64,000 nucleotides of DNA from Acidobacteriota bacterium (GTDB lineage Bacteria; Acidobacteriota; UBA4820; DSQY01): contig JBBILR010000002.1 in the NCBI GenBank assembly GCA_037444825.1, forward strand, positions 27,984-91,983. Direction: 5' to 3'. How positions within the stretch are numbered: position 1 is the first letter of the stretch; each line of letters opens with the position of its first letter. Under the pieces are notes generated by a model that saw only the letters and a list, made by a program, of their open reading frames with translations, did no database searches and was not told the origin of the DNA. Position numbers and translations under genes: made by a program. Shown here piece after piece: positions 10,667 through 64,000 of the stretch.

Positions 10667-10950
10667 GGAATCACCCTCCTCGGGGGAAGGGGGCGCCGAA
10701 GAGCGAAGGAATCCCCTTTCCCTCCCGGGGGGAATCTTGCAAGGACCGTTCCGCCGCCGTTCTTCGGGAAACTCCCTCAAAATGCGAGGGGATGATTCTC
10801 CGCAGGCCCCGAGGGGCGAAAAATTTTCCCGGGCCCCGTCCATTTTTCGTGGCTCCCGTCGCCGAAAAAAACCTTGTGGCTTCCCGGGGAGGGGGATAGA
10901 CTTCCCGCAAGCCTGGCGGAAGAGGGGGTAGCCCCTTGCGGGAGGAAAAG

Positions 10951-16920: not shown

Positions 16921-18486
16921 TCACCTCCCCCGTTCGTAGGGGGCGAAGGCGACGGTGTTGGCGCGGTAGTCGAACCAGACGGCGAAGAGGTCCAGGATGT
17001 CCCTCCGGCCGAGGATCCCGTACAGAGGGAGGCCCCAGCCGCCGCCCAGGGGGGTCACCTGCACCGTCTGCATGTCGAAGCGGGCATTTCCCAGGAGGAG
17101 GACGACGTCGGTGGCCACGCCGCTGGTGAAGGCGCCGGAGAGCCCCGACCCCGTCTGGGCGCCGTAGCGGCCCGAGTTCACCCGGACCCCCGCTTCGGCG
17201 GCCCTTTCCGCCGCGATGAAGGTGGTGTAGGCGCCGGTGTCCACCATGAAGAAGCGCTCCGGCTTTCCCTGGAGGGTGGCGGCGACGAAGGGCCGGTCGT
17301 AGGGCCAGAGGGACTTGACGGTGAAGGCCTCCGGTCCCAGGGCCTCCTTCGGCGGGGTGCCGCTGGGGTGGAGGACCAGCTTGCTCCGCCGCCGGTCGTA
17401 GAGGAGACCGTGGTGCCGGAAGAGGGAGAGGGGCACGATGCCGCCCACCTCCTTGAAGAAGTCTTCCTTCTCGCTCAGGACCAGCGCGGGGACGTTGCGG
17501 AGGGTCAGGGGCCCGAAGGCGAGGCGGTCGAGGATCACCCAGTTGGACTTCTGGGCCCCGAGGTAGCCGAGGCCGAGGTAGGAGGCGGTGGCCACCGGCT
17601 GGAGGCCCAGCTCCTTGACCCACTTCGGGCTCAGAAGGAGGGTGTCGGAACCGGAATCGAGGAGCACGAGGCGGTCCTTGGTGCCGTTCACCGCCACCGG
17701 CGTCACCACGCGGGTGGAGGTGGTGACGCTGCCGGTCCCCGCGTCCCCGAAACCCCAGGTGAGGGCCGAGACGTCCCGGTACTCCGACTTCTCCTTGAGG
17801 GGAAGGGCGACGGGGTACGAAGCCTCCAGCTTCTCGTCGAAGAGCCGCCCCTTTCCCACGGCGCCGTAAAGGCGTTTCAGCCCCTCGTACTCGTCCTTTC
17901 CGGCGGGGTCGGCGGCCAGAAGCGCCTCGGCCCGCATGACCCCCTCCTCCCCCGTCTTCGCCAGGCCGAGGGCCAGCCGGAGGAGCTCCGGCGAGGGCTT
18001 CTCCGAAAGCGACAGGGTCCTTTCCAGGAGGGCCGACGCCTCCTCTTCCTTGCCCGACGCGCGCAGGGCGAAGACCGCCCGGGCGCAGGCCCGGTCCCGC
18101 CAGGAGGGGTTGGAGAGGAGGACCGTCCAGTTCTGCACCGCCTGGGGGACGAGGAGCATCTGGAAGGCCGCCTCGCCCGCGTAGTACCGCAGCTCCGGCC
18201 GGTCGGGAAAGCGCGAGGCCCAGGGGACGGCCATGCGGGCCGCCTCCTGGGGCCGGTTCAGGCCCAGGAGGGCCCGGATCTTCCCGGCGGCGTAGCCGGG
18301 GTTGTCCGGTTCGGCTTGGAGGCCCGCTTCGGCGGACTGCAACGCCTCCTCGTACTTTTCCCCCTCCAACAGGAGCCCGATTTCCTGGAGCCGTCCCGGC
18401 GGGAGGGTCCCCCCCGTCTGGGCCCAGGCGGGGAATGCCAAGATGAACGCCAGAAGGGCCTGAAGAAGCCGTGGTCGGAGCGCCAT
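16921..18486 (-). CDS. secreted TPR-repeat protein with two tandem retropepsin-like aspartic protease domains
   Basis: Signal peptide (MALRPRLLQALLAFILAFPAWAQ), a TPR-like helical N-half, then two clan-AA catalytic motifs preceded by hydrophobics: LVLLDSGSDTLLLS (DSG at 17650-17658) and FFMVDTGAYTTF (DTG at 17233-17241). Confidence 0.75.
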   Translation of the reverse strand: MALRPRLLQALLAFILAFPAWAQTGGTLPPGRLQEIGLLLEGEKYEEALQSAEAGLQAEPDNPGYAAGKIRALLGLNRPQEAARMAVPWASRFPDRPELRYYAGEAAFQMLLVPQAVQNWTVLLSNPSWRDRACARAVFALRASGKEEEASALLERTLSLSEKPSPELLRLALGLAKTGEEGVMRAEALLAADPAGKDEYEGLKRLYGAVGKGRLFDEKLEASYPVALPLKEKSEYRDVSALTWGFGDAGTGSVTTSTRVVTPVAVNGTKDRLVLLDSGSDTLLLSPKWVKELGLQPVATASYLGLGYLGAQKSNWVILDRLAFGPLTLRNVPALVLSEKEDFFKEVGGIVPLSLFRHHGLLYDRRRSKLVLHPSGTPPKEALGPEAFTVKSLWPYDRPFVAATLQGKPERFFMVDTGAYTTFIAAERAAEAGVRVNSGRYGAQTGSGLSGAFTSGVATDVVLLLGNARFDMQTVQVTPLGGGWGLPLYGILGRRDILDLFAVWFDYRANTVAFAPYERGR

Positions 18487-18614
18487 GCGTCCCCCTTTCC
18501 CCCGGTGGTTCACGGGTCGGGGTTCATTGTACACCAGAAACCGGCGGCCGTTGTGAGCCGAGGCCCCCGGGAAGGGTCTCCGGCTCGGCCTCGGGGTTGT
18601 TGTACCCTGAAAAC

Positions 18615-20951
18615 ATGGGCGAGAAGGCGAAGCGGTGGGTCTGGAGGGCGGCCGCCGGGGCGCTCCTGGCGGCGGCCGGGGCGGCCTACGTGCGGTGCGG
18701 CCCCCTCCCCCCGTCGCTCCTGGACCCCTCCCCCCGGCTTTCCACGGCGGTGCTCGACCGGAGGGGCCGCCCCCTCTACGAACGCCTCTCCGCGAAGGAG
18801 GCGCGGAGCGCCTGGCTGGATCCCGGGAGCGTCCCCCCCCTCGTGGAGGCGGCCACGCTGGCGGCGGAGGACCACCGCTTCCACCGCCACGCGGGTCTCG
18901 ACCCCTGGGCGCTCCTCCGGGCGGCCTGGAACGACCTCCGGGCCGGGCGGATTCGGGAGGGGGGCTCCACGCTCACCCAGCAGGCGGTGAAACAACTCAC
19001 CGGCCGCCCCCGAACGATGGCCGGAAAGGTGCGGGAGATGGTCCTGGCCCTTCGCCTGGAGCACCGCCTCGAAAAGCGGGAGATCCTCGCCCTTTACCTG
19101 AACGTGGCGCCTTACGGGAACCAGGCGGAGGGGATCGGAGAGGCGGCCCGGACCTACTTCGGCTGCCGCCCTTCCCACCTGACGCCCGCCCAGGCGGCCT
19201 TTCTGGCGGGTCTTCCCCAGCGCCCCTCGGCCTTCGACCCCTACCGCCGGCTCGGCGAAGCCCGCGCGCGCCAGCGGTGGGTCCTTCGCCGTATGCGCGC
19301 CCTCGGGTTCCTCGACGATGCGGCCTACCGGCGGGCCCTTTCGGAGCGGCTGGTCCTCCGGCGGCCCGACCGTCCCTTCCAGGCGCCCCACTTCGTCCAG
19401 CGGGTCCTGGAGGCGTGCCCGCCGGGCACGAGGGAGGTTCGAACGACCCTGGACCTGGACCTCCAGCGGAAGGTCCTTCAAATCCTTCAGGCGGGGCGGA
19501 TGGCGCGGGAGGCCCACGGCGCCTTCGCCGCCGCCGTGGTGGTGGTCCACAACCCTACGGGGGAGATCCTGGCGTACGAGGGGTCGGGGGACTACTTCGA
19601 CGCCGCCCACTCGGGGGCCATGGACGGGGCCCGGACCCCCCGCCAGCCGGGGTCGGCCCTCAAGCCCTTCACCTACGCCCTGGCCTTCGACGGCGGGTAC
19701 ACCCCCGCGTCGGTCCTCCCCGACCTCCCCCAGCACTTCCCCACCGCCGAGGAGGGGGTGGTCTACAGCCCCCGGAACTACGACGGGCGCTTCCGGGGGC
19801 CTCTGCGGGCCCGGGAGGCGCTGGGGGGATCCGAGAACGTTCCGGCGGTGGTCCTCCTCTCGCGGCTGGGGGCGGGACGTCTCCTCTCCCTCCTTCGGGA
19901 GCTGGGGCTCACGACGCTGGACCGGTCGGCTTCCTACTACGGCTTCGGCCTCACCCTGGGGGACGCCGAGGTCCGCCTCGACGAGCTGTGCGGCGCCTAC
20001 GCCGCCTTGGCGCGGGGAGGCCTCCACCTTCCCCTCGTGGACACGCTGAAGCGGGAGGGGGGGGAGGAAGCCGGCGGGCAGCCCCCTTCGCCTTCCCCGC
20101 CCCGCCGCCTTTTCTCTCTCCTGGCCGCCTACTGGACGGCCCACATCCTCGCCGACCCCGAAGCCCGGGCCTGGGCCTTCGGCCGCGGGGGAAGCCTCGA
20201 CTTCCCCTTCCCGGTCTGCGCCAAGACCGGAACCTCTGAGGCCTACCGGGACAACTGGTGCCTGGGCTTCACGCGGGAGGTCACGGTGGGGGTCTGGGTG
20301 GGCAACTTCGACCGCACGCCGCTGAAAGGGGCCTCGGGGGTCACCGGAGCCGGCCCCCTCTTCCACGAGGTCCTGCTGGAGGCCGAGCGCCACGTCCGGG
20401 GGGGACTGCCCGGCCCCCTGGACCCCTTCCCGGTGGACCCGCCGGAGGGGCTGGCCCCGGTGGAGGTGTGCGCCCTCTCGGGGGGGGCGGCGGGCCCCTC
20501 CTGCCCCTCCCGCCTTTCCGAGTCCTTTCCTCGGGAGCGGGTCCCGAAGCCCTGCGACTGGCACCTTCCGTCGGGCCGGGTGGCTTGGCCGGCGGAGTAC
20601 CGGGCCTGGGCCCGGCGGACCGGGCGCCTCGCGGAGGAGGAGCCCCGGCTGGCCCTCCCCGCCTCCCGCCCGCCCTCGGGGAAACCGGGAGGGCCCCTTC
20701 ACCTGGAGAACCCCCCCGACGGGGCCGTCTACCTCCTGGACCCCACCCTGCCGCCGGCCTTTCAGACCCTGCCCCTCAGGGCCTCCGTCCGGGGAGCGCC
20801 CCGGCGGCTCCTGTGGACGGTGGACGGCGAGGAAGTGGGGCGGTGCTCCTCGGAGGCGGGCCTGGAGTGGCCTCTGCGCCGCGGTGAACACACCGTGGAG
20901 GTGCGGGACGACCGCGGAGCCTCCGCCCGCGCCCGCATCCGGGTGAAGTGA
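18615..20951 (+). CDS. pbpC: penicillin-binding protein 1C (transglycosylase + transpeptidase)
   Basis: N-terminal TM anchor. GT51 motifs EDHRFHRHAGLD and GGSTLTQQ. Transpeptidase motifs SALKP, SxN-like and KTGT. The C-terminal PbpC-specific domain is present. Start taken at the internal ATG (MGEKAKRWVW) rather than the ORF-track GTG at 18471. Confidence 0.88.
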   Translation: MGEKAKRWVWRAAAGALLAAAGAAYVRCGPLPPSLLDPSPRLSTAVLDRRGRPLYERLSAKEARSAWLDPGSVPPLVEAATLAAEDHRFHRHAGLDPWALLRAAWNDLRAGRIREGGSTLTQQAVKQLTGRPRTMAGKVREMVLALRLEHRLEKREILALYLNVAPYGNQAEGIGEAARTYFGCRPSHLTPAQAAFLAGLPQRPSAFDPYRRLGEARARQRWVLRRMRALGFLDDAAYRRALSERLVLRRPDRPFQAPHFVQRVLEACPPGTREVRTTLDLDLQRKVLQILQAGRMAREAHGAFAAAVVVVHNPTGEILAYEGSGDYFDAAHSGAMDGARTPRQPGSALKPFTYALAFDGGYTPASVLPDLPQHFPTAEEGVVYSPRNYDGRFRGPLRAREALGGSENVPAVVLLSRLGAGRLLSLLRELGLTTLDRSASYYGFGLTLGDAEVRLDELCGAYAALARGGLHLPLVDTLKREGGEEAGGQPPSPSPPRRLFSLLAAYWTAHILADPEARAWAFGRGGSLDFPFPVCAKTGTSEAYRDNWCLGFTREVTVGVWVGNFDRTPLKGASGVTGAGPLFHEVLLEAERHVRGGLPGPLDPFPVDPPEGLAPVEVCALSGGAAGPSCPSRLSESFPRERVPKPCDWHLPSGRVAWPAEYRAWARRTGRLAEEEPRLALPASRPPSGKPGGPLHLENPPDGAVYLLDPTLPPAFQTLPLRASVRGAPRRLLWTVDGEEVGRCSSEAGLEWPLRRGEHTVEVRDDRGASARARIRVK

Positions 20952-24014: not shown

Positions 24015-24079
24015 GAGCAGAGGAGGGGGATCCTCATGGGAACGGGTCTTGCGCCCCCGCCTCCCCCGGAGGGGAGGGT

Positions 24080-24105: not shown

Positions 24106-24222
24106 GTTGAGAGGAGGGGGGATCCTCTTGGGAAAGCTCGCCTGGGGCCTTTCAGCCTCCTCGCCGTTTCACCGGCGTTCTACGCTCCCAAGCTACGCAA
24201 GGAGCGTGCCAATCACGGGTCC

Positions 24223-24546
24223 TCAGGCCTCGAAGGAGTGGCCGCAACCGCAGGAGGCGTGGGCGTTGGGGTTCTGGAAGACGAAGCCCGAACCCCGCAG
24301 GTCGTTCACGTAGTCCACCACGGTGCCCTTCAGGTACAGAAAAGAGTTCCTGTCCACGTAGACCGGGAGGTCGCCGAAACGGAAGACTTCGTCGTTCTCG
24401 GAGGCCTTGTCGGCGAGGGAGAGGTCGTACTGGAAGCCGCTGCACCCGCCGCCCACCACGGCGATCCGGAGACCGGCGTCCTCGCGGCCCTCCGCCTTGC
24501 GAAAGCTCTTTACCGCCTCCACGGCCTGGTCGGTCAACTGAATCAT
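24223..24546 (-). CDS. erpA: iron-sulfur cluster insertion protein (A-type carrier, HesB/IscA/ErpA family)
   Basis: 107 aa from MIQLTDQAVEAVK, ending with the conserved C-terminal CGCGxSF. Central GGGCSGFQY. GGAGGAAAG RBS. Confidence 0.88.
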   Translation of the reverse strand: MIQLTDQAVEAVKSFRKAEGREDAGLRIAVVGGGCSGFQYDLSLADKASENDEVFRFGDLPVYVDRNSFLYLKGTVVDYVNDLRGSGFVFQNPNAHASCGCGHSFEA

Positions 24547-24796
24547 GGCTTTCCTCCGTGCCGGCAGAAGGTCCGGCACCCGGGGGGTTTGCAAGGGGTA
24601 TGCCAGGAACACCGGACCGGGCGGGGGCTCCCCGGCGGCGGGATTTCTCCCGGAGGCCCCTTTCCGGCGGAGGCCTCCCGGTTCCACCGGCGGACCTGGA
24701 TGTTTCAAAATGGGCGGGGTGTTGCAGTAACGCAACGCGAGTCGGCGCCGCGGGTCTCCGCTTGTGGTACAACCTCATCCCGAAAGGAGACGGCCC

Positions 24797-36862: not shown

Positions 36863-39403
36863 ATGCGGAAGGTCGGGGAGCGGTACCGGAGGTTTTTTCA
36901 GGATCTCCTTCCCATCCTCTTCGCGCTCCTCGTATCGGCCGTCTACTTCCTTTCGGTGGTCCCCAACACCCGGCCGTACTGGGACCGTTTCGTTCTCCTC
37001 ACGCTGGTCCTGTTGGTTCTGGACCGCATCGTCATCGCCTGGTACATGCGGCGAAGGCTCCTTCCGCCCATCCTGGCCTACAAGCGGGGGAGGCGGGCGG
37101 GAAGGCGCTTTAGCCGCCCGGAGCTGGAGGAGTTCTACCGGGCCTTTTCCTCCTACGTCATTCGCCACCAGGTGATGAGCGCCGTGGCCTGGGCCGTGGC
37201 GGCGCTGGCCCTGGCGACCCTGACCTACCTCTTCCTTCAGCGGACGGCGCTGGCCTTTTTCGGCGTCCTTTTCACGGGGGCCATCGCCGCCGGCGTCTCC
37301 CTGGGTTTCTCCTACTTCGTCCTCCAAAGGCAGACGGGACCGCTCCTGGAGGAGGTCCAGGCCCAGTTGGAGCGCCTCCCCGACGTCTCGAGGTGGCGGC
37401 TCTCCGTGCGCTCCAAGGTGGGGGGCTCGGTGATCCTCCTCACGGCCCTGGCCTTTCTCGCCTTCGGCGTCCTCGTTTACTCGAAGATTTCGCTGGGGCT
37501 TTCGGACTTCGCCGTGCGAACGGGGCTGGAGGAGGGGGGGGCGCTTCTCTCCGCCTTGGAAACCGCGCCGGAAGGCGAATGGTCCGCCCTCCTCCAGGGG
37601 GTCGCCAGCCCCCTCTGGTGCCTCCAGGTGGTGAACGAAAAGGGGGAGGTGCTGGCGGCCACGCCGGGGGAGGTCCGCGCCCCCATGGCCGAGGCGGCGC
37701 GCCTCCTGGCGGTACCGGGCCCGCCGCGAACGGTGATGACCAACTGGGGCACCGCGGGGGTGAAGGGCCTCCCCGGCGGGAAGGCCGCGCTCCTCCTTCC
37801 CCGAAAGGGGGGAACCGGAAGGATCCTCGGAGGCTTCGCCGTGACGGGGGGGCTCTTCCTCCTCGGAACCCTGCTGGTTCTGGGGGCCTACATCCTCTGG
37901 CTGAGCCGGGATACGGCGAGGACCCTGGCCCGCACCACGGAGGCCGGCGCCCGCCTGGCGTCGGGGGACCTCCGGGAAGTCCCGTCCATCTGGTCCGACG
38001 ACGAGATGGGGAGCCTCGCCGAAGACCTCCGGGAGACCTTCCGGGGGCTGAGGAAGCTCACCCGTGAGGTGGCGGGGGCCGCGTCCACCGTGGACGAGGA
38101 GGTGGCCCGCACCGTGGAGGTGGTGGGCGGCCTCCACGAGCGGGTGGCCGACCAGAGCCGCTCGGCGGCCCGGACCGACGAGGCCCTCAAGTCCCTGGAA
38201 GGCCGGATCCTGGAGGTCTCCCGGGCCATGGAGCAGGTCTCCACCTCCACGCAGGAGGTCTCCTCGGCCATCCTGGAGATGCAGGCCAGCGTGGAGGAGA
38301 TCGCGCGGAACGCCGACGTGCTGATCTCCTCGGTGGAGACCACCGCCGCCTCCTCCAACGAAATCGCCTCGTCGGCCCAGGAGGTGAAGGGGGCCACGGA
38401 GCGCCTCCACGGGGCGGGGCAGGAGGCCGTCTCCTTCCTCAACGAGCTGGACGCCTCCCTGGAGGAGACCCGCCGGAACGCCGCCGCCCTTCGCGACGCC
38501 GCCGCCAAGGTCACCAAGGACGCGGAGGCCGGCTTCGCCGCCGTGGCGGCGGTGGAGGACGGGATCCTGAAGACCCGAAGGGCCGGCGAGGAGAGCCAGA
38601 AGACCCTCGGGGACCTGATGGATTCCATCCATCGCATCGGGCGCATCGTGGGGGTGATCCAGGAGGTCACCGAGCAGACCAACCTCCTCAGCCTCAACGC
38701 CTCCATCATCGCCGCCGGGGCGGGGGAGTACGGCAAGGCCTTCGCCGTGGTGGCCCACGAGATCCGGGAGCTTTCGGCCCGCACGGCGGCCAACGCCAAG
38801 GAGATCCGGGAGGTCATCGCGCGCCTCACCGAGAGCGGCGGCGAGATGGCCGCCTCCATGGACCGCACCGTGGAGGTGGTGGACCGCAGCACCGACCTCA
38901 GCCGGGAGGCGGGCCTGGCCTTGAGGACCATCCTGGAGTCGGCCTCCACCCAGGAGGAGATGAGCCGGCGGATCGCCGCCGCCACCGAGGAGCTGGCCCA
39001 CGGGGGACAGTCGGCCAGCCGGGCCATGCAGGCGATTTTCGAGATGATCGAAGGGATCTCCCGCGCGGCCCACGAGCAGGCGCAGTCCACCCTCTTCCTC
39101 AACCAGGAGGCCGAGCGGGTGCGGGACGTGGCCCGCCAGCTCCGTAACGCCACCGGGGAGCAGGCCAAGGGGTCGCGGGTCATCAGCGAGGCCGTCACGC
39201 GCATCATGGAGGACACGGCGGGAACCACCCGGGCCGTGCAGGTCCAGACCCGCGAGGCGGCGGCCATCAGCGAGGCGGCCCGGGAGGTGGCGGAGACGGC
39301 CAGGGCCATCGAGCGCTCCTTCGAAGACCTCAGCGCCGCCGCCGGGCGCCTCCGCCGGAGCGCCGAGATCCTGCAGCGGGAGATCCGGGCCTTCCGCACC
39401 TGA
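36863..39403 (+). CDS. methyl-accepting chemotaxis protein, atypical multi-TM N-terminus + HAMP + MCP signalling domain
   Basis: Highly conserved MCP core [41 protein letters not shown] (LASGDLREVPSIWSDDEMGSLAEDLRETF). Four TM helices, a ~130-aa loop, then a fifth TM before HAMP. Confidence 0.88.
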   Translation: MRKVGERYRRFFQDLLPILFALLVSAVYFLSVVPNTRPYWDRFVLLTLVLLVLDRIVIAWYMRRRLLPPILAYKRGRRAGRRFSRPELEEFYRAFSSYVIRHQVMSAVAWAVAALALATLTYLFLQRTALAFFGVLFTGAIAAGVSLGFSYFVLQRQTGPLLEEVQAQLERLPDVSRWRLSVRSKVGGSVILLTALAFLAFGVLVYSKISLGLSDFAVRTGLEEGGALLSALETAPEGEWSALLQGVASPLWCLQVVNEKGEVLAATPGEVRAPMAEAARLLAVPGPPRTVMTNWGTAGVKGLPGGKAALLLPRKGGTGRILGGFAVTGGLFLLGTLLVLGAYILWLSRDTARTLARTTEAGARLASGDLREVPSIWSDDEMGSLAEDLRETFRGLRKLTREVAGAASTVDEEVARTVEVVGGLHERVADQSRSAARTDEALKSLEGRILEVSRAMEQVSTSTQEVSSAILEMQASVEEIARNADVLISSVETTAASSNEIASSAQEVKGATERLHGAGQEAVSFLNELDASLEETRRNAAALRDAAAKVTKDAEAGFAAVAAVEDGILKTRRAGEESQKTLGDLMDSIHRIGRIVGVIQEVTEQTNLLSLNASIIAAGAGEYGKAFAVVAHEIRELSARTAANAKEIREVIARLTESGGEMAASMDRTVEVVDRSTDLSREAGLALRTILESASTQEEMSRRIAAATEELAHGGQSASRAMQAIFEMIEGISRAAHEQAQSTLFLNQEAERVRDVARQLRNATGEQAKGSRVISEAVTRIMEDTAGTTRAVQVQTREAAAISEAAREVAETARAIERSFEDLSAAAGRLRRSAEILQREIRAFRT

Positions 39404-40511: not shown

Positions 40512-41093
40512 TCAGCCGGAGGCGGAACGGCTCCGGAGGTAGGCTTCCAGGGCGTTGCGGACCTTGCCCCGGGCCCGGTGGAGCCGCATCTTCACCACGT
40601 CCTTGCCGAGGCCCAGCGCCTGGGCCACCGTTTCGGTGTCGAGTCCCTCGAGATCCCTCAGAACCAGCACCGAGCGGTAGCCCTCGGGCAGATCGAGGAT
40701 CGCCTGCCGGAGCCGCTCCCTCAGCTCGTCGTCCAGGAGGGCCTGGTCCGGAAGGCGGCTCCAGGGCAACGCCTCCCCCGCCCCGGGGCCCGGAAGGGCC
40801 TCGTCCAGCTCCACCTCCTCCTTCAGGTACTTGGAACGGCGGCGCCGCATGAGGCAGGCGTTGTGGGCGATGCGGTACAGCCAGCCGGCGAAGGCCCCCG
40901 GCTGCTTGAGGGTGGAGATGGACTCGAAGGTCTTGAGGAGGGTGTCCTGGAGGACCTCCCGGGCGTCCTCCCGGTCCCCGCACATGCGGTAGCCGAAGTT
41001 GAGGAGCTTTTCGCCGTAGGACCGGAAAAACTCCTCGAAGGCCTGGGGATCGCGGGCCTTCATGCGTTCGATGAGCTCCACGGGGACCTCCAC
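40512..41093 (-). CDS. ECF (sigma-70 family group 4) RNA polymerase sigma factor
   Basis: Region 2 (FEEFFRSYGEKLLNFGYRMCGDREDAREVLQDTLLKTF...WLYRIAHNACLMRRRR) and region 4 HTH (LPEGYRSVLVLRDLEGLDTETVAQALGLGKDVVKMRLHRARG). GTG start at 41093 with an AAGGGGGAG RBS. No adjacent anti-sigma gene. Confidence 0.8.
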   Translation of the reverse strand: MEVPVELIERMKARDPQAFEEFFRSYGEKLLNFGYRMCGDREDAREVLQDTLLKTFESISTLKQPGAFAGWLYRIAHNACLMRRRRSKYLKEEVELDEALPGPGAGEALPWSRLPDQALLDDELRERLRQAILDLPEGYRSVLVLRDLEGLDTETVAQALGLGKDVVKMRLHRARGKVRNALEAYLRSRSASG

Positions 41094-41229
41094 GCGCGCT
41101 CCCCCTTTGGCCCGCAGTATAGGCCGAAAGCCCCTCCGGCCATAGCCCCCGCGCCGCTGTCGCGCACAGGCCCCCGCGGGGCTTGTCTCCGGAAGGGTGG
41201 ACCGGCTACGATGGGGCGGGAGGTGGAGG

Positions 41230-43782
41230 ATGGGAAGGCTCATCGGCAGGCTCCCCAGCTGGCTGCTCGAACTGGTGCCGATCCTCGTGGGCATCGCCGT
41301 GGCCTTCGCCTACTTCGTCGTCACCCTGCCGGCCACGCGGCCCTTCGTCCCCCAGTACTTTCTCGCCGCGTTGGTCATCTACCTCCTCTCCCGGCCCCCC
41401 GCCGTGTGGTACTACAACCGCTTCGTGCTCCCGCCCCTCAAGGCGTACCGGAAGGCCCGGAGGTCCGGGCGGCCCCTCAGCCAGGCGGACCTCCGAAGGT
41501 TCTACCTCGACCTCTCCCCCTTCCTGCCCCGCCACCTCTTGGGCAGCCTGGTCATCTGGCTGGGCTGCGGCGCGGCCCTCCTCACCGCCGACCAGCTCTT
41601 CCTGGTGGGCACCTTCCTCTCCGCCGTCACCCTGGTCTTCACCACCATCATCATCGTGGTGGTGGGGGTGGTTCTCTCCTACTACGTCAACAAGGCCCGC
41701 CTGACCCCCGTGATGGAGGAGATCCAGGGACTCCTGGAGCGGCCCCCGGAGGTGCGGAAGGGCAGGCTTTCCATCCCCATGAAGGTGGCGGGGGGCGTGC
41801 TGGCCATCAACCTGCTGGCTTTTTTCGCTTTCGGCGTTCTTCTCTACGCGCAGATGGCCCGGGCCATCCAGGTTTCGATCCTCCGCCAAGCCGCCGGGAG
41901 CACCGGCACCCTCGGAGAGGTCCTGGACGGGCTCCCGAGGGAGCGCTGGGCCGCGGAACTGGAAGCGCGGCGCCCCGCGGGCACCGTTCTCGCGGTGGTG
42001 GCCTCCGACGGGACGGTGGTGGCCGAGGCGCCCCCCCGTTCCGTCTCCGGCTTCCGGAGCGTGGGGCGGTGGATCCGAACGTGGGGAAGGGTGGGCCAGG
42101 AGGCCCAGGCCGCCACCCCGCTGGGCCAGGCCCTCTTCCGGCCCGGCCCCCAGGGGCTGGGCCTTCTCCTCGGCGTGGACCGGTCCGAGACCTCGCCGAG
42201 AAGGATGTTCGCCATCTTCACCGTGGGCTTCTTCTACCTCGTGGTGGCCATGCTGCTCCTCGTGCTCTTCATCGGCCTCTTCGGGCGGGACCTCTCCGCC
42301 GTGGGCCAGCGGCTGGCGGCCTTCTCCCACCGGATGGCGGAGGGGGACCTCCGGACCTCCGTCCCCGTGTGGTCCGACGACGAGCTGGGGCGCATCTCCG
42401 ACGACCTCCACGGGCAGTTTCGGGACCTCCGAACCCTCGCCGGGGAGGTGGGCCTCTCGGCGCGCCTCGTGGAGGAGGAGATCGGGAGGCTGGCCGTGAC
42501 GGCGGAGCGCCTCCACCGGGAGGTGGACAGCCAGAACCGCTCCCTCTCGGAGACCCGCGGGGCCGTGGAGGAAGCCTCCCGGACGGCGGAGGGGGTCTCG
42601 CGCTCGGCGGCGGAGGTGGCCTCCTTCACCCAGGAGGTGTCGTCCACCGTCCTGGAACTCCAGGCCAGCACCGAGGAGATTTCCCGGAGCGCCGACGTCC
42701 TCACCCAGTCGGTGGAGCAGACGGCCTCCTCCTCCAACGAGATCGCCGCCGCGGCGGAGGAGATCGCGGGGACGGTGCGGGAACTGGAGGGAAACGGGCA
42801 GGAGGCGGTCTCCTTCTTCCTCGAGCTGGACGCCTCTCTCGAGGAGACGCGGCGGAACGCCCAGAGCCTCCTGGAGGCCGCCCAGAAGGTCCGGGCGGAC
42901 GCGGAGGCGGGCAACCAGGCGGTGCGGGAGGTGGGGGAGACCATCGAGGCCACCCACCGCTCCATCGAAGAGAGCCAGCGGGACCTGGAGTCCCTCCAGG
43001 CCGCCCTGGAGCGGATCCACTCCGTCACCGACGTCATCCAGGAGATCAGCGAGCAGACCAACCTGCTCTCCCTCAACGCCTCCATCATCGCCGCCGGGGC
43101 CGGGGAACACGGAAGGGCCTTCGCGGTGGTGGCCCAGCAGATCCGGGAACTCTCCCACCGGACGGCCCTCAACGTACGGGAGATCCGCGACCACATCCGC
43201 ACGGTGGGGGAGAGCCGGGAACGGGTGGCCCGTTCGGTGGAGCGGTCGGTCCTCTCGGCCCGGAGGAGCACCGACCTTTCCCGCTCCGCGTGGGAGGCCC
43301 TGGCCACCATCCTCGACTCCTCGGTCCGCCAGGACGACGTTTCCAGGACCATCGCCGCGGCGGCGGAGGAGGTGGCCCACGGGGGGCGCAGGGCCAGCCG
43401 GGTCATCGAGGGGATCTTCGAGCGGGTCCAGCAGATCGGAAGGGCCACCCGCCAGCAGGTGGAGGCCACGCGGCTCTTGCACCAGGAGGCCGAAAGGGTG
43501 CGCGAGGTGGCCGCCCACCTTCGCGCCGCCACGGAAGAGCAGGCCCGGGGGACGGCCATGGCCGGCCAGGGGGTCACCCGGATCGCCGAGGAGAGCGCCG
43601 CGACCTCCCAATCCATGGCCCGACAGGCGGAGACCTCCCGGGCCATCACCGCAGCGGTGAACCGCATCAGCGAGGCCGCCGACGCCCTTTCGGGGGCCTT
43701 CGGGGACCTCACCCGGTCGGCGGCGCGCCTCGAGGACGGGGCCCGGCGGCTCAACGAGAGCCTGAGGGCCGTCCGCGTGTGA
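41230..43782 (+). CDS. methyl-accepting chemotaxis protein, paralog of the 36863-39403 gene (same multi-TM + HAMP + MCP architecture)
   Basis: [41 protein letters not shown] ([29 protein letters not shown]). ATG at 41230 with a GGGAGGTGGAGG RBS; divergent from the ECF sigma gene. Confidence 0.88.
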
Positions 43783-54920: not shown

Positions 54921-56075
54921 ATGCACATCAACGACTTCCTCAAGATGGCCATCGAACACGGGGCCAGCGACCTGCACCTGAAGGTCGGCTCCCACCCTGT
55001 CATCCGCGTCCACGGCCACCTGACCCCCATGGCCGACCAGAAGCGCCTCATGCAGGAAGACACCATCGCCATGGCCTTCTCCATCATGGACGCCAAGCAG
55101 AAGGAGAAGTTCAAGGCCAACCTGGAGCTGGACATCGCCTACTCCGTGCCGGGGCTGGGCCGCTTCCGGGTGAACATCTTCCAGCAACGAGGCACGGTGG
55201 GGATCGTCTGCCGCGTCATCCCCATCGGCATCAAGACCATCCGGGAGCTCATGCTGCCTCCCATCCTGGAGAAGATCGCCGCCGAGCAGCGGGGCCTGGT
55301 CCTCTGCACGGGAACCACCGGGTCGGGGAAGTCCACCACCCTGGCCGCCATGATCGACCAGATCAACGCCACGAGGACCGAGCACATCATCACCGTGGAG
55401 GACCCCATCGAGTTCCTGCACCGGGACAAGAAGTCCATCGTGAACCAGCGGGAGGTGGGGGTGGACACCCGCTCCTTCGCCTCCGCCCTGCGGGCCGCCC
55501 TCCGCGAGGACCCCGACGTGATCCTCGTGGGCGAAATGCGGGACTACGAGACCATCGAGACGGCCATCCTGGCGGCGGAGACGGGCCACCTGGTCTTCTC
55601 CACCCTCCACACCCTGGACGCCACGGAGACGGTGAACCGCATCATCTCCGTCTTCCCCCCTCACCAGCAGAAGCAGATCCGCCTCCAGCTGGCCGCCATC
55701 CTTCGGGCGGTCATCTCCCTCCGACTGCTGCCCAAGGCCGACGGGAAGGGGCGGGTGCCCGCCGCCGAGGTCATGATCTGCACCTCCACCATCCGGGACT
55801 GCATCGAGAACAAGGAGAAGACGAAGCTGATCCGGGACTACATCGAGCAGGGCTACAGCCAGTACGGGATGCAGACCTTCGACCAGTCCCTCTTCTTCCT
55901 GTACAAGCAGGGGCTCATCACGCTGGAGGAGGCCCTCCGCCGGGCCACCAACCCCGACGAGTTCCGGCTCAAGATCCAGGGGATCCAGTCCACCTCCGAC
56001 ATCGCCAAGGAGCAGATGGAAGGGGTTCAGGCCCCCGGGGCCGCGGACCTTCCCTCGGCCTTCACCAAATTCTGA
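54921..56075 (+). CDS. pilT: type IV pilus retraction (twitching motility) ATPase
   Basis: 384 aa. Walker A GTTGSGKST, Asp box, Walker B and His box; PilT-specific AIRNLIRE-like helix (TIRDCIENKEKT). Confidence 0.95.
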   Translation: MHINDFLKMAIEHGASDLHLKVGSHPVIRVHGHLTPMADQKRLMQEDTIAMAFSIMDAKQKEKFKANLELDIAYSVPGLGRFRVNIFQQRGTVGIVCRVIPIGIKTIRELMLPPILEKIAAEQRGLVLCTGTTGSGKSTTLAAMIDQINATRTEHIITVEDPIEFLHRDKKSIVNQREVGVDTRSFASALRAALREDPDVILVGEMRDYETIETAILAAETGHLVFSTLHTLDATETVNRIISVFPPHQQKQIRLQLAAILRAVISLRLLPKADGKGRVPAAEVMICTSTIRDCIENKEKTKLIRDYIEQGYSQYGMQTFDQSLFFLYKQGLITLEEALRRATNPDEFRLKIQGIQSTSDIAKEQMEGVQAPGAADLPSAFTKF

Positions 56076-56585: not shown

Positions 56586-59249
<2,664 letters not shown>

Positions 59250-59274
59250 ACAGCACCCGTGCCCCGAGGCCTCC

Positions 59275-59940
59275 TCAGGCCTTCACCGCGGTGAAGGTGA
59301 CCACCGTCGTGTAGGTTCCCTCGTGAAAGCGGGCCGAGGCGGCGTCGGGGATCAGGAGGTCGAAGGCCAGCGCCAGGCGCCTCCACCCCTCCCCACGGGC
59401 GGGCAGGGAGAGAAGCGTCTCCGGGGCGCTCGCCAGCGGGCGCGCCGGGGCGGAGAGCCGGGCCTGGGCCTCCCCCGCCTGGGCCAGGACACGGATGGCG
59501 GAAGTCGGAAAGCCGGGGCCCGGCCCGGAGCCGGTCCAGGCGGGTTCCACCGAGGCCTTGACCTCCAGCGTCCCGGAGGCGGCGTTGGAGAAGAGGTAGA
59601 GGGGGCTTTCCCCCGGCTCCGCCGCAAGCCCCCGGGCCTCCAGGGTGGGGGTCTTCACCGCCGTCGGCGTGAAGCGGACGGGGCCCGAACAGCCGGGCGG
59701 AGGGGGAAAGACGTTGTCGGGGCAGGGCTGGCCCGGGCGGACCGTCTCGCCGGTCCTCACGTAGGCCGCGAGGTCGAAGACCACTTCGTCGGGGACCTCC
59801 AGGGCCACCACGCCGGGGATGGTCACCGTGATCCGCACCGAGCCCTGGGTGTGCTGGGCTCCGGTCCGGAGGTCGGCTTGGGCGAAGGCGGCCGCCGTGG
59901 TGAACCCCAGGGTGAGAGCCAGAAGGATCTTGGTTTTCAT
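59275..59940 (-). CDS. hypothetical small secreted protein (221 aa) under a sigma-54 promoter
   Basis: Signal peptide MKTKILLALTLGFTTAAAFAQA. AAGGAGG RBS 7 nt before the ATG. Beta-rich, Thr/Val/Pro composition. Confidence 0.6.
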   Translation of the reverse strand: MKTKILLALTLGFTTAAAFAQADLRTGAQHTQGSVRITVTIPGVVALEVPDEVVFDLAAYVRTGETVRPGQPCPDNVFPPPPGCSGPVRFTPTAVKTPTLEARGLAAEPGESPLYLFSNAASGTLEVKASVEPAWTGSGPGPGFPTSAIRVLAQAGEAQARLSAPARPLASAPETLLSLPARGEGWRRLALAFDLLIPDAASARFHEGTYTTVVTFTAVKA

Positions 59941-59970
59941 GGTCGCCTCCTTTGCGTCCCACCCGCGAAC

Positions 59971-59986
59971 AGCAAGGGGGATACCA
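59971..59986 (-). promoter_or_regulatory. sigma-54 (RpoN) -24/-12 promoter TGGTAT-N5-TTGCT
   Basis: Minus strand reads cTGGTATcccccTTGCTg, with exact consensus spacing (GG-N10-GC) ~40 nt upstream of the ATG at 59940. Preceded by a 40-nt AT-rich patch (59996-60035; in a 70%-GC genome) suitable for IHF bending, and by an imperfect palindrome GGGGTCTCGATTCTGAGAACCCC (60079-60101). Confidence 0.55.
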
Positions 59987-60101
59987 GGAGGCGTGCTTTT
60001 TGAATAGATATGAAAAATAAAGCAGAATTACCATCGTTCCCCGCCCGGTCCTCTCAGTCCTGAGAAAAGGGGGGCGAGGGGTTCTCAGAATCGAGACCCC
60101 A

Positions 60102-61907
60102 TCAGGGGGCGCAGACCCCCGGCGGGAGGGGGTTGCCGGCGCCGTCCCGTCCGGCCACGGTGAAGGACCCTCCGCCCAGGTCCGCCGCCAGGAGGAAGTA
60201 GGCGTCGTCGGGGAGGTCGGGGAGGAGCGCCTCCAGCCGCCCCGAGCCGTCGTCGGAAACCTCCAGGGCGCACAGGCCGTGGCCCGCCTCCGTGTGACTG
60301 GCGAAGTCCCCGAGCCTCCCCCAGAAGAGCGCGTAGGAGACGGCCCCGGGGGCTTTCTGGAAGGCGAGGCGGAAGCCGGGGGAGCCGCCCTTGGCGGCGG
60401 TCTTTTCGAGGGTGAAGGGGAAGAAGGCCTCGGCGCCGCTGACCTCCCGCTGGGCGCAGGGAAGGATCTCCACGGCCACCGGGTCCGACCTCCGCGGGCA
60501 GCCGTCCGGGCCCTCGGCGAGGGCGGTGTAAGTGCCGGGAAGCGCCGTGGCCAGCGCCGTGCCCGGGGCGACGGAAAGAGGCCTCCCGTTCACCTCCCAG
60601 GTGACGGGGGTGGTTCCGGGGGACTCCAGGAGAACCCCGTCGGGACAGGGGAGCGGGGTGGCGGAGAGGGCGGGCTTCGGGGCCAGGGAAAGGGAGAGGG
60701 CGGGAGAGGTGACGGAACAACCGGCCGCCGTGAGCGCCTCGTAGGCGTACGCGCCGCTCTCCTCGGGAACCAGGCGGCGGCCTGCGGCGCCCGGAAGAAT
60801 CTGGCCGTCCTTCCGCCAGGCGTAGGACAGGAAGCCGTCCGGGGCCTCGAGGACCACTCCGCACCCCTGCGGCAGGAGCGCCGGCTCCGGGGCTTCGGCC
60901 ATCCCCACCTCGTGGGCGGGGGAGAAAGCGGCACATCCGGCGCCGTTCTCCACCCGGACGGTGTAGGCCCCGCTCTGCGTCACCGCCAGGGATGGGGAGA
61001 CCGCCCCCGGAATGGGAAGACCGTCCCGGTACCACTGGAGGGAAGCGTAGGCGCCCCCCTCCGCGGAAAGAACCACGGGGGCGCCCGCGCAACCTTCCAC
61101 GGGCCCCGCGATGGAGGGCGGGAGGGGAGGCTCCTCCACCAGGACCTCGAAGTCGGGGGAGAGGCCGCGGCACCCGTCGGCGGTCCATACCTCCACGGCG
61201 TACCGTCCCGTGCGCCCGGCGAGGAGCTCCCTGCCCGAGGCCGCCTCCAGGGCGGATCCCGCGAAGAACCACCGGTAGGAGGCGTACCCCTCCGGCGCCG
61301 AAAGAAGAGTTCCCGGGGGGCAGGCGGAGGGGGCCCCAGAGAGGACCGGTTGGGGGGGGGTGCAGGGAAGGGCCTCCACGCGGACCTCGTCCACCTCCCA
61401 CCACCCGAAGGCGGTCCCCGCGGCGTCGAAGCGGAAGCGGATCCGGAGCCCCGGCCTCCCCACCCACGGGGTGAGGTCGAAGGCGGCGGTGCGCGGCCCC
61501 CGGGCCGCCTCCGCGCCGAATCGCTGAAGGAGATGCGGGAAGGTGGCGCCCCCGTCCTCCGAGAGGGCGATCTCCCCCCCGCCCGTGAAGCCCTCCTGGA
61601 TGAAGCGGTCCTCGGAGACCACCAGACGCGCCTCCCGGGCCCAGAAAGGGAGGTCGAAGGGGGGGCTCACGAGGTCGAGAATCCCCGCGCAAGAAGGCCG
61701 GGCCACGGCGGCGGCGCCCCCTCCGCCGGTGTAGTTGTTGAGTCCCATGGCCGGGGAACCCTCCCATCGCTCCAGACAGGAGGAGGGGGAAAGGCTCCAG
61801 CCGGGGGGAGGCCAGGCCTCGAAGGATTCGGACAGGACGGTCCCCTGGGCGAAGGCTCCCCAGGAAAGAAGCGCCGGGGCGAGGACAAGGAGAATGCGGC
61901 GCCTCAT
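60102..61907 (-). CDS. secreted protein with N-terminal lectin/MAM-like domain and four Ig-like repeats (601 aa)
   Basis: Real start MRRRILLVLAPALLSWGAFAQG at 61907 (ATGA overlap with the upstream gene). Four ~90-aa repeats of Y(R/A)W..dG..l.G.....l......GaYtv.v....GC.. are visible. The upstream half of the ORF-track entry (61908-63953) is the wrong frame of the neighbouring gene. Confidence 0.7.
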   Translation of the reverse strand: MRRRILLVLAPALLSWGAFAQGTVLSESFEAWPPPGWSLSPSSCLERWEGSPAMGLNNYTGGGGAAAVARPSCAGILDLVSPPFDLPFWAREARLVVSEDRFIQEGFTGGGEIALSEDGGATFPHLLQRFGAEAARGPRTAAFDLTPWVGRPGLRIRFRFDAAGTAFGWWEVDEVRVEALPCTPPQPVLSGAPSACPPGTLLSAPEGYASYRWFFAGSALEAASGRELLAGRTGRYAVEVWTADGCRGLSPDFEVLVEEPPLPPSIAGPVEGCAGAPVVLSAEGGAYASLQWYRDGLPIPGAVSPSLAVTQSGAYTVRVENGAGCAAFSPAHEVGMAEAPEPALLPQGCGVVLEAPDGFLSYAWRKDGQILPGAAGRRLVPEESGAYAYEALTAAGCSVTSPALSLSLAPKPALSATPLPCPDGVLLESPGTTPVTWEVNGRPLSVAPGTALATALPGTYTALAEGPDGCPRRSDPVAVEILPCAQREVSGAEAFFPFTLEKTAAKGGSPGFRLAFQKAPGAVSYALFWGRLGDFASHTEAGHGLCALEVSDDGSGRLEALLPDLPDDAYFLLAADLGGGSFTVAGRDGAGNPLPPGVCAP

Positions 61908-64000
61908 GGGCACACCTCCACGGCGCCGATTTCGGGGGCCGTTCCGCAGAAGGGCAGACCCACGTCGGTCCCCGCTTCCCGCAGGGGGCTCCCCGGCGCC
62001 GGCTGGTAGTAGGTCGAAAGGTCGGGGTTTACGGTCTGGACGTACTGCGGGGGGGCGGAGAGGCTGTGGGCCCCCGCCGCCACCGTCCCGTGGAAGGCGT
62101 AGTCGGAGACGTTGCCCCAGAGGTCCTCGTAGTCCGAGTCCACCCAGGCGGCGGTGGCGGGGGAGTCGGTTCCCCAGCCGATGCCGTTGGAGGTCACGGC
62201 GTTGTCGCGGGAGGCCACCGCCGCCGTGGCCCCGGCCACGTAGATCCCCAGGTAGGCGTTGGAATCGAAGGTGTTGCCGTAGATCTCCAGCGTTCCCGCG
62301 GGCTGTTCCACGTGGAGGCCCATGTAGTTCTGCACCGACAGCGTGTGGTCCACGCGCAGGTTCTGGGGGGAGAGGGCGAAGATCCCTTCGCTCCGGGGGA
62401 TGCGGCGCACCAGGGTCCCCGTCACCCGGTGGCCGGTCCCTCCGTTCAGAAAGACCCCGTAGAAGGCGTCGGCGTTGGCGGCGTCCACCCGGCAGGAGTC
62501 CACGGTGCAACTTTGGCCCCCGTCCACGAGGATGCCGTAGCCGAGGGCGGGGGGCGCCACCCGGCACCCCCGGACGGCCACGCCGTTCACCTGGGAGAGG
62601 GCCGGGCCCACCAGGCAGTTCGCGAACTCCAGGTTCCGGACCTCGACGTACCCCACCGTGGGGAAGCCCGTGGGGGTGCTCACCTCGAAACCCGTGTCCT
62701 GCGTGGGGTCGCTGCCGGCGATGAGGGGGAGGAGGCCCCCCGACGGGACGCCGGTGACGAGCGTGGGGCAACCCGAGGTTCCGTTCTGGGCGGAGGAGGT
62801 GACGGCCGAGCCGGCGGCGTACGGCGTGCCGCTGCGGCTGGCGCCCACCTCCACGTAGACGGCCCCCTGGCCCTGAAGGAGCTGCAGGGCCCTCCCGATG
62901 GTTTTCAGGGGCTGGTCCACCGTCCCCGGGTTGGCGTCGTTGCCGGTCTGGTTGTTCACGGTGAGGCCCTTCTCCACCCGCCATTCGAGAAAATCCAGCC
63001 GCAGGCGGTGCCAGGAGGTGGCCGGTGAGGTGGTGAAGCGCACCGTCATTCGCCCGAGGCCGTCGAGGTACGTGGAGACGAGGTTCCCCGGCACGGTGAG
63101 GGCGGCGGTGGCAAAGGAGGCCCCCGGCGTGAAGGTCCCCAGGGAGACCCAGGTGGAGGGGGGCTGCAGGGCCTCCACGGTGACCTGTTCGGACTGGGCG
63201 TGGCTGCCCACCCCGAAGACCCCCGTGAAGACCAGTTCCCGGATGCCGCCCACGTCCAGGGTAGGGGAACGGAAGGAGGCCTGGACGGTGTTCACCACCT
63301 GGACCGTGGCCTCCGTGAAGGAGCGGACGAGGGCGGTGGCGTCCCCGCGGGTTCTCCCCGAGAGGGCCATGCGGAAGGGGTGCAGGCTCTTGGCGTTGGC
63401 GCTGAGCGGCCCGGGGGAGGTGGCCGTGATGACGAAGGAGTTCGTGGGGGTGCTCTGGTTTCGGGCGAGAACCCGGCGGGTGGTGGCCGTCACCGAGCCG
63501 TCGGTGGTGGCCGTGGGCTGGACGATGGTGGGGGCGTTCCACCAGGCGTTGTTCCGGGCGACGCTCACGGCGCTCCACCCTCTGGGGATCGTCACGGTGA
63601 GGGTGCAGCCCGCGCGCATGTCGTCCTGGTTGTAGGGGTTGGAGTCGTCGGTGTGGCGGAGGCGAACCGAGAGGGAGACGGCCTGCCCCGCCGGGACGGC
63701 GGGGATGTAGGCCCGGGGGACGAGGGCGGCGCTCCCGGTGAGGTCGAAGCCCACCGCCACGTCGGCGGCCCACGCAGACCAGTTCACCAGGCGCTGGGTG
63801 GTGGAGGCGGCGTAGGAGCCGGAAAGGGTGGCGGCGGTGAAGGTGAGGGTGGCGTCGCTGGGCTGGGTGTAGGAGGAGGGGGCCGTTACCAACCGGACGA
63901 GGACCAGAAACTCCAAAGCCTCGTGGGGTGGCACCGTGAGGTTCCCCGTCCACCTCAGCGTCCGGGGGTCCACCACCGTGAAGGCCCCCGAGGCCGGGGC
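61904..64000 (-). CDS. C-terminal >699 aa of a large secreted parallel beta-helix (pectate-lyase-fold-like) protein; 5' end outside window
   Basis: In-frame to the window edge (no stop in 63977-64000). PbH1-like repeats (NLEFANCLVGPAL...VAVRGCRVA...GILVDGGQSCTVDSCRVDAAN...GVFLNGGTGHRVTGTLV). Thr/Ser/Asn-rich composition. Confidence 0.7.
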   Translation of the reverse strand, partial: APASGAFTVVDPRTLRWTGNLTVPPHEALEFLVLVRLVTAPSSYTQPSDATLTFTAATLSGSYAASTTQRLVNWSAWAADVAVGFDLTGSAALVPRAYIPAVPAGQAVSLSVRLRHTDDSNPYNQDDMRAGCTLTVTIPRGWSAVSVARNNAWWNAPTIVQPTATTDGSVTATTRRVLARNQSTPTNSFVITATSPGPLSANAKSLHPFRMALSGRTRGDATALVRSFTEATVQVVNTVQASFRSPTLDVGGIRELVFTGVFGVGSHAQSEQVTVEALQPPSTWVSLGTFTPGASFATAALTVPGNLVSTYLDGLGRMTVRFTTSPATSWHRLRLDFLEWRVEKGLTVNNQTGNDANPGTVDQPLKTIGRALQLLQGQGAVYVEVGASRSGTPYAAGSAVTSSAQNGTSGCPTLVTGVPSGGLLPLIAGSDPTQDTGFEVSTPTGFPTVGYVEVRNLEFANCLVGPALSQVNGVAVRGCRVAPPALGYGILVDGGQSCTVDSCRVDAANADAFYGVFLNGGTGHRVTGTLVRRIPRSEGIFALSPQNLRVDHTLSVQNYMGLHVEQPAGTLEIYGNTFDSNAYLGIYVAGATAAVASRDNAVTSNGIGWGTDSPATAAWVDSDYEDLWGNVSDYAFHGTVAAGAHSLSAPPQYVQTVNPDLSTYYQPAPGSPLREAGTDVGLPFCGTAPEIGAVEVCP

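Follow-up and report, generated by a model that had tools for sequence, protein, structure and literature searches.

In Escherichia coli, the glnAp2 promoter is preceded by strong tandem NtrC sites centred near -140 and -108. At the nifH promoter of Klebsiella pneumoniae (CTGGTATGTTCCCTGCA), a NifA site, TGT-N10-ACA, lies near -130 with a site for integration host factor (IHF) between enhancer and promoter. Filament genes offer further examples, namely pilA with PilS/PilR in Pseudomonas aeruginosa, Myxococcus xanthus and Geobacter, and the flagellin genes of Caulobacter with FlbD and IHF. Control of flagella and pili by sigma-54 is a general theme (PMC3162934). Here we describe a comparable arrangement in a 64,000-nt stretch of DNA from an uncultured Acidobacteriota bacterium, all of which we call the window. 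A gap of 161 nt precedes the gene for a secreted protein of 221 amino acids (aa), the last gene of a conserved cluster. We consider it likely that this gap is an activator-dependent sigma-54 promoter region that makes the last cluster gene a separate transcription unit.

The elements of the gap, given below in upstream-to-downstream order and read on the minus strand like all features that follow unless stated otherwise, lie between the target gene and the preceding cluster gene, gene B.

59941..60101, minus strand: intergenic gap of 161 nt, between the gene B stop codon (60104-60102) and the target-gene ATG (59940).
60083..60096, minus strand: inverted repeat 1, the distal candidate enhancer site, TCTCGATTCTGAGA, centred near -129.
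60052..60065, minus strand: inverted repeat 2, the proximal candidate enhancer site, TCTCAGGACTGAGA, centred near -98.
59996..60030, minus strand: AT-rich spacer, TAATTCTGCTTTATTTTTCATATCTATTCAAAAAG, spanning roughly -36 to -70 relative to the predicted start.
59971..59987, minus strand: sigma-54 -24/-12 element, CTGGTATCCCCCTTGCT, with GG at 59985-59984 and GC at 59973-59972.
59960 (59958..59962), minus strand: approximate predicted transcription start, 12 nt 3' of the -12 C, from standard sigma-54 geometry.
59946..59952, minus strand: ribosome-binding site, AAGGAGG, 5 nt 5' of the ATG at 59940.
59275..59940, minus strand: target gene, encoding a 221-aa signal-peptide protein; its family is an orphan one, and the predicted fold is a pilin-like beta-sandwich.

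The promoter element reads TGGTAT-CCCCC-TTGCT (59971-59986), and its GG and GC are exactly 10 nt apart. An earlier interpretation made from the sequence alone, hereafter the sequence-only reading, had recognised both dinucleotides, and they can indeed be read directly at the canonical TGG-N8-TTGC spacing. The motif is non-coding and has the same orientation as the gene at 59275-59940. It had been placed a flat 40 nt 5' of the ATG; the upstream placement holds, but the 3' end of the motif is 31 nt and its 5' end 46 nt from the start codon. The AAGGAGG reported before the ATG is present (59952..59946). GC3 frame analysis, which uses the GC content of third codon positions, upholds the reading frames, and the target gene is convergent with alaS (56586-59249, plus strand).

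How far does this motif stand out within the window itself? In a scan with a sigma-54 position weight matrix, a check suggested by the sequence-only reading, the site scored 13.7 bits and ranked third-best in the window. Sites of at least 13.7 bits number 3 in the 128 kb made up by both strands, against 0.55 expected from simulated sequence, and all three are intergenic, on the minus strand and facing the start of a minus-strand gene. The pattern TGG-N8-TTGCW has 5 matches in the window (1.24 expected), and TGGYAY-N5-TTGCW with at most one mismatch has 3 (0.96 expected). From the window alone, the enrichment over chance is therefore modest. With about 0.55 sites of such score expected per window, and with no terminator between gene B and the target gene, the motif might be a functionless chance match and the gene transcribed solely by read-through from upstream. 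This explanation must be weighed against the conservation of the gap in relatives.

That conservation, in our view, provides the decisive evidence for a promoter. We aligned 7 orthologous gaps, from the window and from the relatives' loci L001, L018, L013, L002, L003 and L004, at 60-95% protein identity, and used Fisher tests to compare the columns of each block with the remaining columns; the 7 sequences are mutually related. In the sigma-54 motif, 11 of 17 columns are invariant (P = 3e-7). The T, G, G, T, T, G and C columns of the core are all invariant at exact spacing, as is the whole of CCTTGCT, and the positions between the core elements vary. Repeat 1 is invariant at 14 of 15 columns (P = 6e-12). 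In repeat 2 the corresponding count is 8 of 14 (P = 2e-5), with both arms fixed and the 6-nt centre free. From the ribosome-binding site to the ATG, 13 of 15 columns are invariant, including AGGAGGCG.CCATG, and the predicted start sits inside a partly conserved GGAYGC stretch in which G146, G147, A148 and G150 of the alignment are conserved. Across all remaining columns, only 6 of 90 are invariant, and outside the conserved blocks the more distant orthologs share 31-53% identity with the window. Such a footprint is expected where a -24/-12 promoter is functional and a protein-binding site lies upstream of it.

The pattern recurs beyond these orthologs. The distant lineages L005 and L019/L020 encode a 38%-identical homolog, which is also a terminal gene after a long gap. 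GGCAT-N5-TTGC precedes these copies, as AGGCATGGGAGTTGCC or CGGCATACCCCTTGCG, and a single TCTCA-N4-TGAGA lies about 120 nt upstream. Conservation of this form, together with recurrence in distant lineages, is incompatible with a chance match. Moreover, the gap is kept at 147-163 nt in all orthologs, with its conserved blocks, unlike the other junctions of the cluster, where genes overlap or abut. We regard a functionless motif with read-through transcription as having a negligible probability.

The conserved block could instead be a promoter for sigma-70 or for a sigma factor of the extracytoplasmic function (ECF) type, or an unrelated operator, its likeness to sigma-54 promoters being coincidental. 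TTGCTG does resemble a -35 hexamer, TATAAT occurs in the AT-rich island of L001, and the window holds an ECF sigma gene (40512-41294). However, a scan of 59200-60300 found 0 sigma-70-like promoter sites and no sigma-70 hexamer pair, and the TATAAT-like stretch is unconserved. The invariant positions are those that sigma-54 contacts, at sigma-54 spacing, and the pattern recurs with different flanks at the first promoter of the cluster and in the distant lineages. A different sigma factor or an unrelated operator is thus very unlikely. No Rfam family matched in the region.

Upstream of the motif, the sequence-only reading had seen one palindrome and taken it for either an upstream activating sequence or the terminator of the upstream gene. 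The palindrome exists: repeat 1 in this genome extends to GGGGTCTCGATTCTGAGAACCCC (60100..60078), which starts 2 nt past the gene B stop. A second inverted repeat, TCTCAGGACTGAGA at 60065..60052, had been missed. The two repeats share TCTC-N6-GAGA and the consensus kTCTCr-N4-yGAGAa. TCTC-N6-GAGA has no other copy in the cluster loci, and TTCTCR-N4-YGAGAA with at most one mismatch occurs in the window at these 2 positions only, against 0.27 expected. In the 7 orthologs, the repeats are spaced 31, 31, 31, 31, 31, 30 and 29 bp apart, or about three helical turns. The centre of the proximal repeat lies 72-73 nt from the GG in 6 orthologs and 62 nt from it in L004; the L004 distance is shorter by one helical turn, and phasing is therefore kept. 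As in an enhancer, the dyads lie 80-150 bp 5' of the promoter, their half-sites are conserved and they are helically phased.

Could these repeats act as RNA rather than DNA? Even with a real promoter, they might form hairpins in the 3' end of the gene B mRNA that either terminate it weakly or protect it from exonucleases. The distal repeat begins 5 nt past the gene B stop and, in its extended form, has a 9-bp stem here that folds at -13.7 kcal/mol (z = -3.1), and C-rich and G-rich flanks, in which a few compensatory changes occur, could lengthen the proximal repeat. Against this, the core arms are constant throughout the orthologs, without compensatory changes, and the outer GGGG/CCCC extension of repeat 1 is not conserved. 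The region has no T-run, no intrinsic terminator was called in it and the whole segment folds like its shuffles (z = -1.1). In L005 and L019, the upstream gene is followed first by a strong hairpin (-28 and -30 kcal/mol) distinct from the repeat, and only further downstream by the repeat itself. The two copies are also about three helical turns apart and helically phased to the promoter. Because the arms are invariant, the spacing is phased, no terminator was called and the extension is unconserved, a DNA dyad for a dimeric protein is favoured over an RNA hairpin, and we consider RNA hairpins an unlikely explanation of the repeats. Since the extended repeat 1 folds in this genome, it may have a dual DNA and RNA role here. 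Of the two functions first proposed for the palindrome, the upstream activating sequence thus gains from two invariant repeats at a fixed distance from the promoter, and the terminator loses from the missing T-run and the separate hairpin of distant relatives. From their conservation and placement, the repeats have the look of tandem sites for a sigma-54 activator, an enhancer rather than a terminator.

The stretch between repeats and promoter is AT-rich, as the sequence-only reading had it, but the island abuts the -24 element instead of lying 30-70 nt farther upstream. Its lowest-GC 30 nt have 20% GC, compared with 71% for the window. In the orthologs, the spacer has 45-57% GC with 30-nt minima of 20-40%, so that composition is conserved and sequence is not. 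The reading had gone on to suggest an IHF site in the island. The best match in the window to the IHF consensus WATCAANNNNTTR, which is the E. coli one and may not apply to Acidobacteriota, has 3 mismatches; a perfect match occurs in one ortholog only, L004 (TATCAATAGGTTA). These data support a bendable spacer between enhancer and promoter, which could be bent intrinsically or through the binding of an IHF/HU-type protein. The spacer between the repeat and the -24 element in L004 (9901-9955) is 10-11 nt shorter than in the window (59986-60051), or about one helical turn.

A sigma-54 promoter with an enhancer calls for a bacterial enhancer-binding protein (bEBP). The window encodes none, as the sequence-only reading had stated, according to a six-frame search for the GAFTGA and ESELFGH motifs and a Pfam scan of its open reading frames. 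It had proposed to look for an NtrC-family activator gene just beyond the window end; in the syntenic L004 genome (L023), none was found within 20 kb on the upstream side of the gene, which takes in 10 kb ahead of the cluster. No GAFTGA-type protein was found in L001-L004, L013, L018 or L023, and no RpoN box in the window (six frames) or in any fetched relative locus. The only activator we found belongs to the distant L006/L007 cluster, whose upstream palindrome differs (TGTGTCA-N12-14-TGACACA). Since none is present in the window, in the relatives' loci or upstream of the L004 cluster, the activator or activators must be unlinked.

The lack of a cognate activator in the loci searched would also fit a real promoter whose repeats bind something other than an activator, such as a repressor, an anti-activator or an architectural protein, with the activator working from another site or from solution. 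The promoter of the first cluster gene carries a different upstream element (ATGTTTTC...GTAACACTTTTC), and we know of no activator site that the TCTC-N6-GAGA dyad matches; both points count for this explanation. On the other hand, the position at -98 and -129, the tandem of about three turns and the AT-rich spacer resemble the glnAp2 and nifH enhancers, and no other conserved block between gene B and the promoter could serve as an enhancer. We therefore give a non-activator protein only a small chance relative to a tandem enhancer.

Several points weigh against our reading of the gap as a sigma-54 promoter region. The organism is uncultured, and the promoter is a prediction from sequence. The presence of sigma-54 itself in this lineage is something we infer: neither rpoN nor an activator gene was seen in the window or, for a syntenic relative, within 20 kb on the upstream side of the gene. 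The weight matrix approximates the published consensus. The site falls below consensus strength, with T at -23 and C at -20 and 13.7 bits compared with 16.6 and 18.1 for sites elsewhere in the window. The Fisher P values are optimistic, since the orthologs are related to one another. To these can be added the poor IHF match in the AT-rich island and the extended distal repeat, which as RNA can also form a hairpin of moderate stability here.

What we observe directly are the motifs with their conservation and geometry, and the context of gene and cluster; from these we infer how a sigma-54 promoter with a tandem enhancer would work at this gene. Sigma-54 RNA polymerase would bind the -24 (TGG) and -12 (TTGC) elements at 59971-59987 and be held there as a closed complex. 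A bEBP of the NtrC family, encoded elsewhere, would bind the kTCTCr-N4-yGAGAa dyads near -129 and -98, and the AT-rich spacer (-36 to -70) would permit looping of the DNA through an intrinsic bend or an IHF/HU-type protein. ATP hydrolysis by the activator would then open the promoter, with transcription predicted to start near 59960. The resulting leader of about 20 nt, with its strong AAGGAGG, would lead to translation of the secreted, donor-strand-pilin-like subunit. If this subunit belongs to a fibre, a promoter of its own could set its level or timing apart from that of the assembly genes.

What kind of protein does this promoter serve? The sequence-only reading described a small secreted protein, and the 221-aa product does carry a signal peptide (MKTKILLALTLGFTTAAAFA/QA), followed by a donor-strand-pilin-like predicted fold. 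It matches no family in Pfam or NCBIfam. A collection of 5.8 billion sequences holds 12 homologs, 2 of which are labelled as Acidobacteriota metagenome-assembled genomes, and in a set of 1.84 billion representative proteins the subunit family makes up only 42 clusters at 50% identity. The AlphaFold model (predicted local distance difference test score, pLDDT, 76) shows a beta-sandwich body preceded by a disordered N-terminal segment. Foldseek returned archaeal bundling pili, FimG, CfaB, TasA and PapA, all at weak E-values, and a PDB sequence search of solved structures with the family profile found no similarity. The protein is a paralog of the 218-aa product of the second cluster gene, to which it is 31% identical, and probably a component of the same fibre. 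Given the signal peptide, the predicted fold, the paralogy and the cluster context, a function as a surface-fibre subunit can reasonably be proposed. Two long members of the family (946 and 2137 aa) contain 9-10 repeated matches to part of the domain.

The target gene had been described as the last of three consecutive secreted-protein genes. Its terminal position stands, but the cluster has seven conserved genes, of which the window holds the last 3 only. The seven begin with an 865-869-aa protein that has C-terminal CarboxypepD_reg domains. Products of 218 aa, about 292 aa and about 286 aa come next, then a beta-helix protein (about 830 aa), an Ig-like protein (about 601-606 aa) and, after the gap, the 221-aa protein. 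In the conserved cluster, the terminal gene is convergent with alaS. The two genes that precede it in the window are as follows.

61904..64000, minus strand: gene A, encoding a right-handed beta-helix protein (Pfam Beta_helix, NosD and DUF1565); its 5' end lies past the window, and its orthologs have about 830 aa.
60102..61907, minus strand: gene B, whose 601-aa product is secreted and carries Ig-like domains; the gene B ATG overlaps the gene A stop (ATGA), and in relatives a 601-606-aa ortholog stands at this place.

A similar promoter motif precedes the first cluster gene. In every lineage examined, GGCAC/T-N5-TTGC lies 25-40 nt 5' of the ATG of this gene, and across the lineages with this motif the gene encodes an outer-membrane-barrel-like protein of 865-919 aa. 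The motif was found at the following positions of the relatives' loci.

L001, 440-455: first-gene promoter motif.
L003, 384-399: first-gene promoter motif.
L004, 401-416: first-gene promoter motif.
L018, 426-441: first-gene promoter motif.
L019, 77-92: first-gene promoter motif.
L006, about 6365-6380: first-gene promoter motif.
L009, about 5474-5489: first-gene promoter motif.
L010, about 2765-2780: first-gene promoter motif.

In the window's lineage, a conserved ATGTTTTC-N5-GTAACACTTTTC stands about 200 nt upstream at the first gene, unlike the dyad of the terminal gene. A distant type of the cluster (L006-L012) has two subunit paralogs in tandem after the first gene. Its upstream element is TGTGTCA-N12-14-TGACACA followed by a very AT-rich stretch (L006, 6255-6290; L009, 5365-5400; L010, 2655-2690). 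At 16176-20256 of L006/L007, genes for a histidine kinase, an HD-domain response regulator and an NtrC-type Sigma54_activat protein with a GAFSGA loop adjoin the cluster. Because the first-gene promoter is found in all lineages examined and an NtrC-type activator stands beside the L006/L007 cluster, the whole cluster family looks to be under sigma-54 control. Between the tandem subunit paralogs (251 and 221 aa) of the distant type lies a long GC-rich hairpin, GCGCGCGGCGCCGCGC...GCGGCGCCGCGCG (L006, 9944-10000; L010, 6319-6382); in pilus operons, intercistronic stem-loops of this kind set the ratios of subunits.

The remaining cluster proteins were compared with known pilus machinery. The 869-aa first protein is modelled by AlphaFold (pLDDT 54) as a porin-like outer-membrane beta-barrel with N- and C-terminal beta domains; at low confidence, it may be such a barrel. 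No PapD, PapC or Usher family and no TapA/SipW-type partner was recognised among the cluster proteins, which gave no match to known pilus machinery. The 295- and 285-aa cluster proteins were considered as further pilin paralogs and rejected, as they are unrelated to the pilin-like family. A contig search with the alignment of the first protein returned only unrelated CarboxypepD_reg-domain proteins (L014-L017), and a homolog search with the 59-aa C-terminal fragment of the DUF7121 protein gave no candidates.

Taken together, the cluster allows a broader and more tentative proposal. The window may hold the tail of an undescribed surface-fibre system restricted to Acidobacteriota and wholly wired to sigma-54 through two different enhancers, which in the window's lineage would be ATGTTTTC...GTAACACTTTTC at the first gene and kTCTCr-N4-yGAGAa at the terminal subunit gene; two unlinked activators could then set the machinery and the subunit type independently; we think this possible, with the balance of probability against it. 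Such a system would consist, in order, of an outer-membrane barrel, an orphan donor-strand-type subunit, two further proteins, a beta-helix protein and an Ig-like protein, with a second subunit paralog in the terminal position in the window's lineage. If it exists, kTCTCr-N4-yGAGAa would define the regulon of a new activator.

The two sites that outscore the promoter of the target gene are found together elsewhere in the window. The best, CTGGCATACCCCTTGCA (24590-24606, minus strand, 18.1 bits), lies 45 nt 5' of the ATG at 24545 of a small IscA/HesB-like gene for Fe-S cluster biosynthesis, and an inverted repeat, GTTGC-N6-GCAAC (24721-24736), lies about 150 nt 5' of the start predicted for that gene. 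The second-best, TTGGCACGCTCCTTGCG (24196-24212, minus strand, 16.6 bits), begins 12 nt past the stop of the IscA-like gene and about 160 nt 5' of the ATG (24037) of a deoxyhypusine-synthase-like gene. The two sites, which flank the IscA/HesB-like gene, hint at a broader use of sigma-54 in this organism. There are also two minus-strand copies of an imperfect direct repeat, GAGGATCCCCC(C)TCCTCT...CTCCCCG, at about 24108-24127 in the leader of the deoxyhypusine-synthase-like gene and at about 24017-24035 across its annotated ATG. A duplication could account for the two copies, or the start codon may have been assigned wrongly.

Other genes of the window deserve brief mention. A bacterial alpha-2-macroglobulin of 1950 aa (10936-16788, plus strand) is encoded near a PBP1C-type penicillin-binding protein (18471-20951, plus strand; Transgly, Transpeptidase and BiPBP_C domains). 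An aspartyl-protease/TPR gene on the opposite strand separates the two; the pairing of alpha-2-macroglobulin with PBP1C is known. A giant protein of 2512 aa (3305-10843, minus strand) combines four VWA domains, RCC1 repeats, one Ig domain and five PKD domains. Two large methyl-accepting chemotaxis proteins (36863-39403 and 41197-43782, both plus strand) flank an AIR-synthase-related gene and the ECF-type sigma gene (40512-41294, minus strand). A gene for a PilT-like ATPase (54921-56075) adjoins alaS.

Sigma-54 promoters have seldom been documented in Acidobacteriota, an abundant yet hard-to-culture phylum, and our search of the literature on sigma-54 in Acidobacteria found nothing usable. The footprint at this gap is unusually clean. 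It provides a promoter and enhancer model for Acidobacteriota genomes, and the candidate site kTCTCr-N4-yGAGAa can be used to seek the unlinked activator and its regulon in complete genomes. It also marks a rare orphan-gene cluster as a putative regulated cell-surface structure. The understanding of sigma-54 itself is unchanged.

In comparison with known systems, the 221-aa protein stands apart from donor-strand fibres (the chaperone-usher pilins FimG/FimA/PapA/CsuA-B, TasA, archaeal bundling pili and the environmental fibril TLP-1, PDB 9IKK, PMC11494351): it has no sequence similarity to any solved structure, its fold scores are weak, and no PapD-like or PapC-like partner was recognised. In regulation, the locus resembles the sigma-54-dependent pilin and flagellin genes, where a filament subunit also has its own sigma-54 promoter and enhancer and to which the kinase and NtrC-type activator adjoining the L006/L007 cluster offer a further parallel. 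The subunit here is neither a type IV pilin nor a flagellin, however, and belongs to an orphan family with a donor-strand-type beta-sandwich predicted fold.

With nifH, the promoter shares the unusual TGGTAT hexamer at -24, an enhancer near -130 and a bendable or IHF-binding region between enhancer and promoter. The IHF site of nifH is documented, whereas only AT-richness is conserved here; the enhancers are unrelated, and the -12 sequence CCTTGCT of this promoter is nearer to consensus. With glnAp2, the likeness lies in a -24/-12 promoter, in two dyads about three helical turns apart and 100-140 bp upstream, and in looping, which is proposed here. The glnAp2 site is TGCACC-N5-GGTGCA, in contrast to kTCTCr-N4-yGAGAa, and it serves nitrogen assimilation and not a secreted, fibre-like subunit, which here has no activator gene nearby. 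The promoter architecture is thus well known, and what is new is the phylum, the sequence of the dyad and the orphan gene family under its control.

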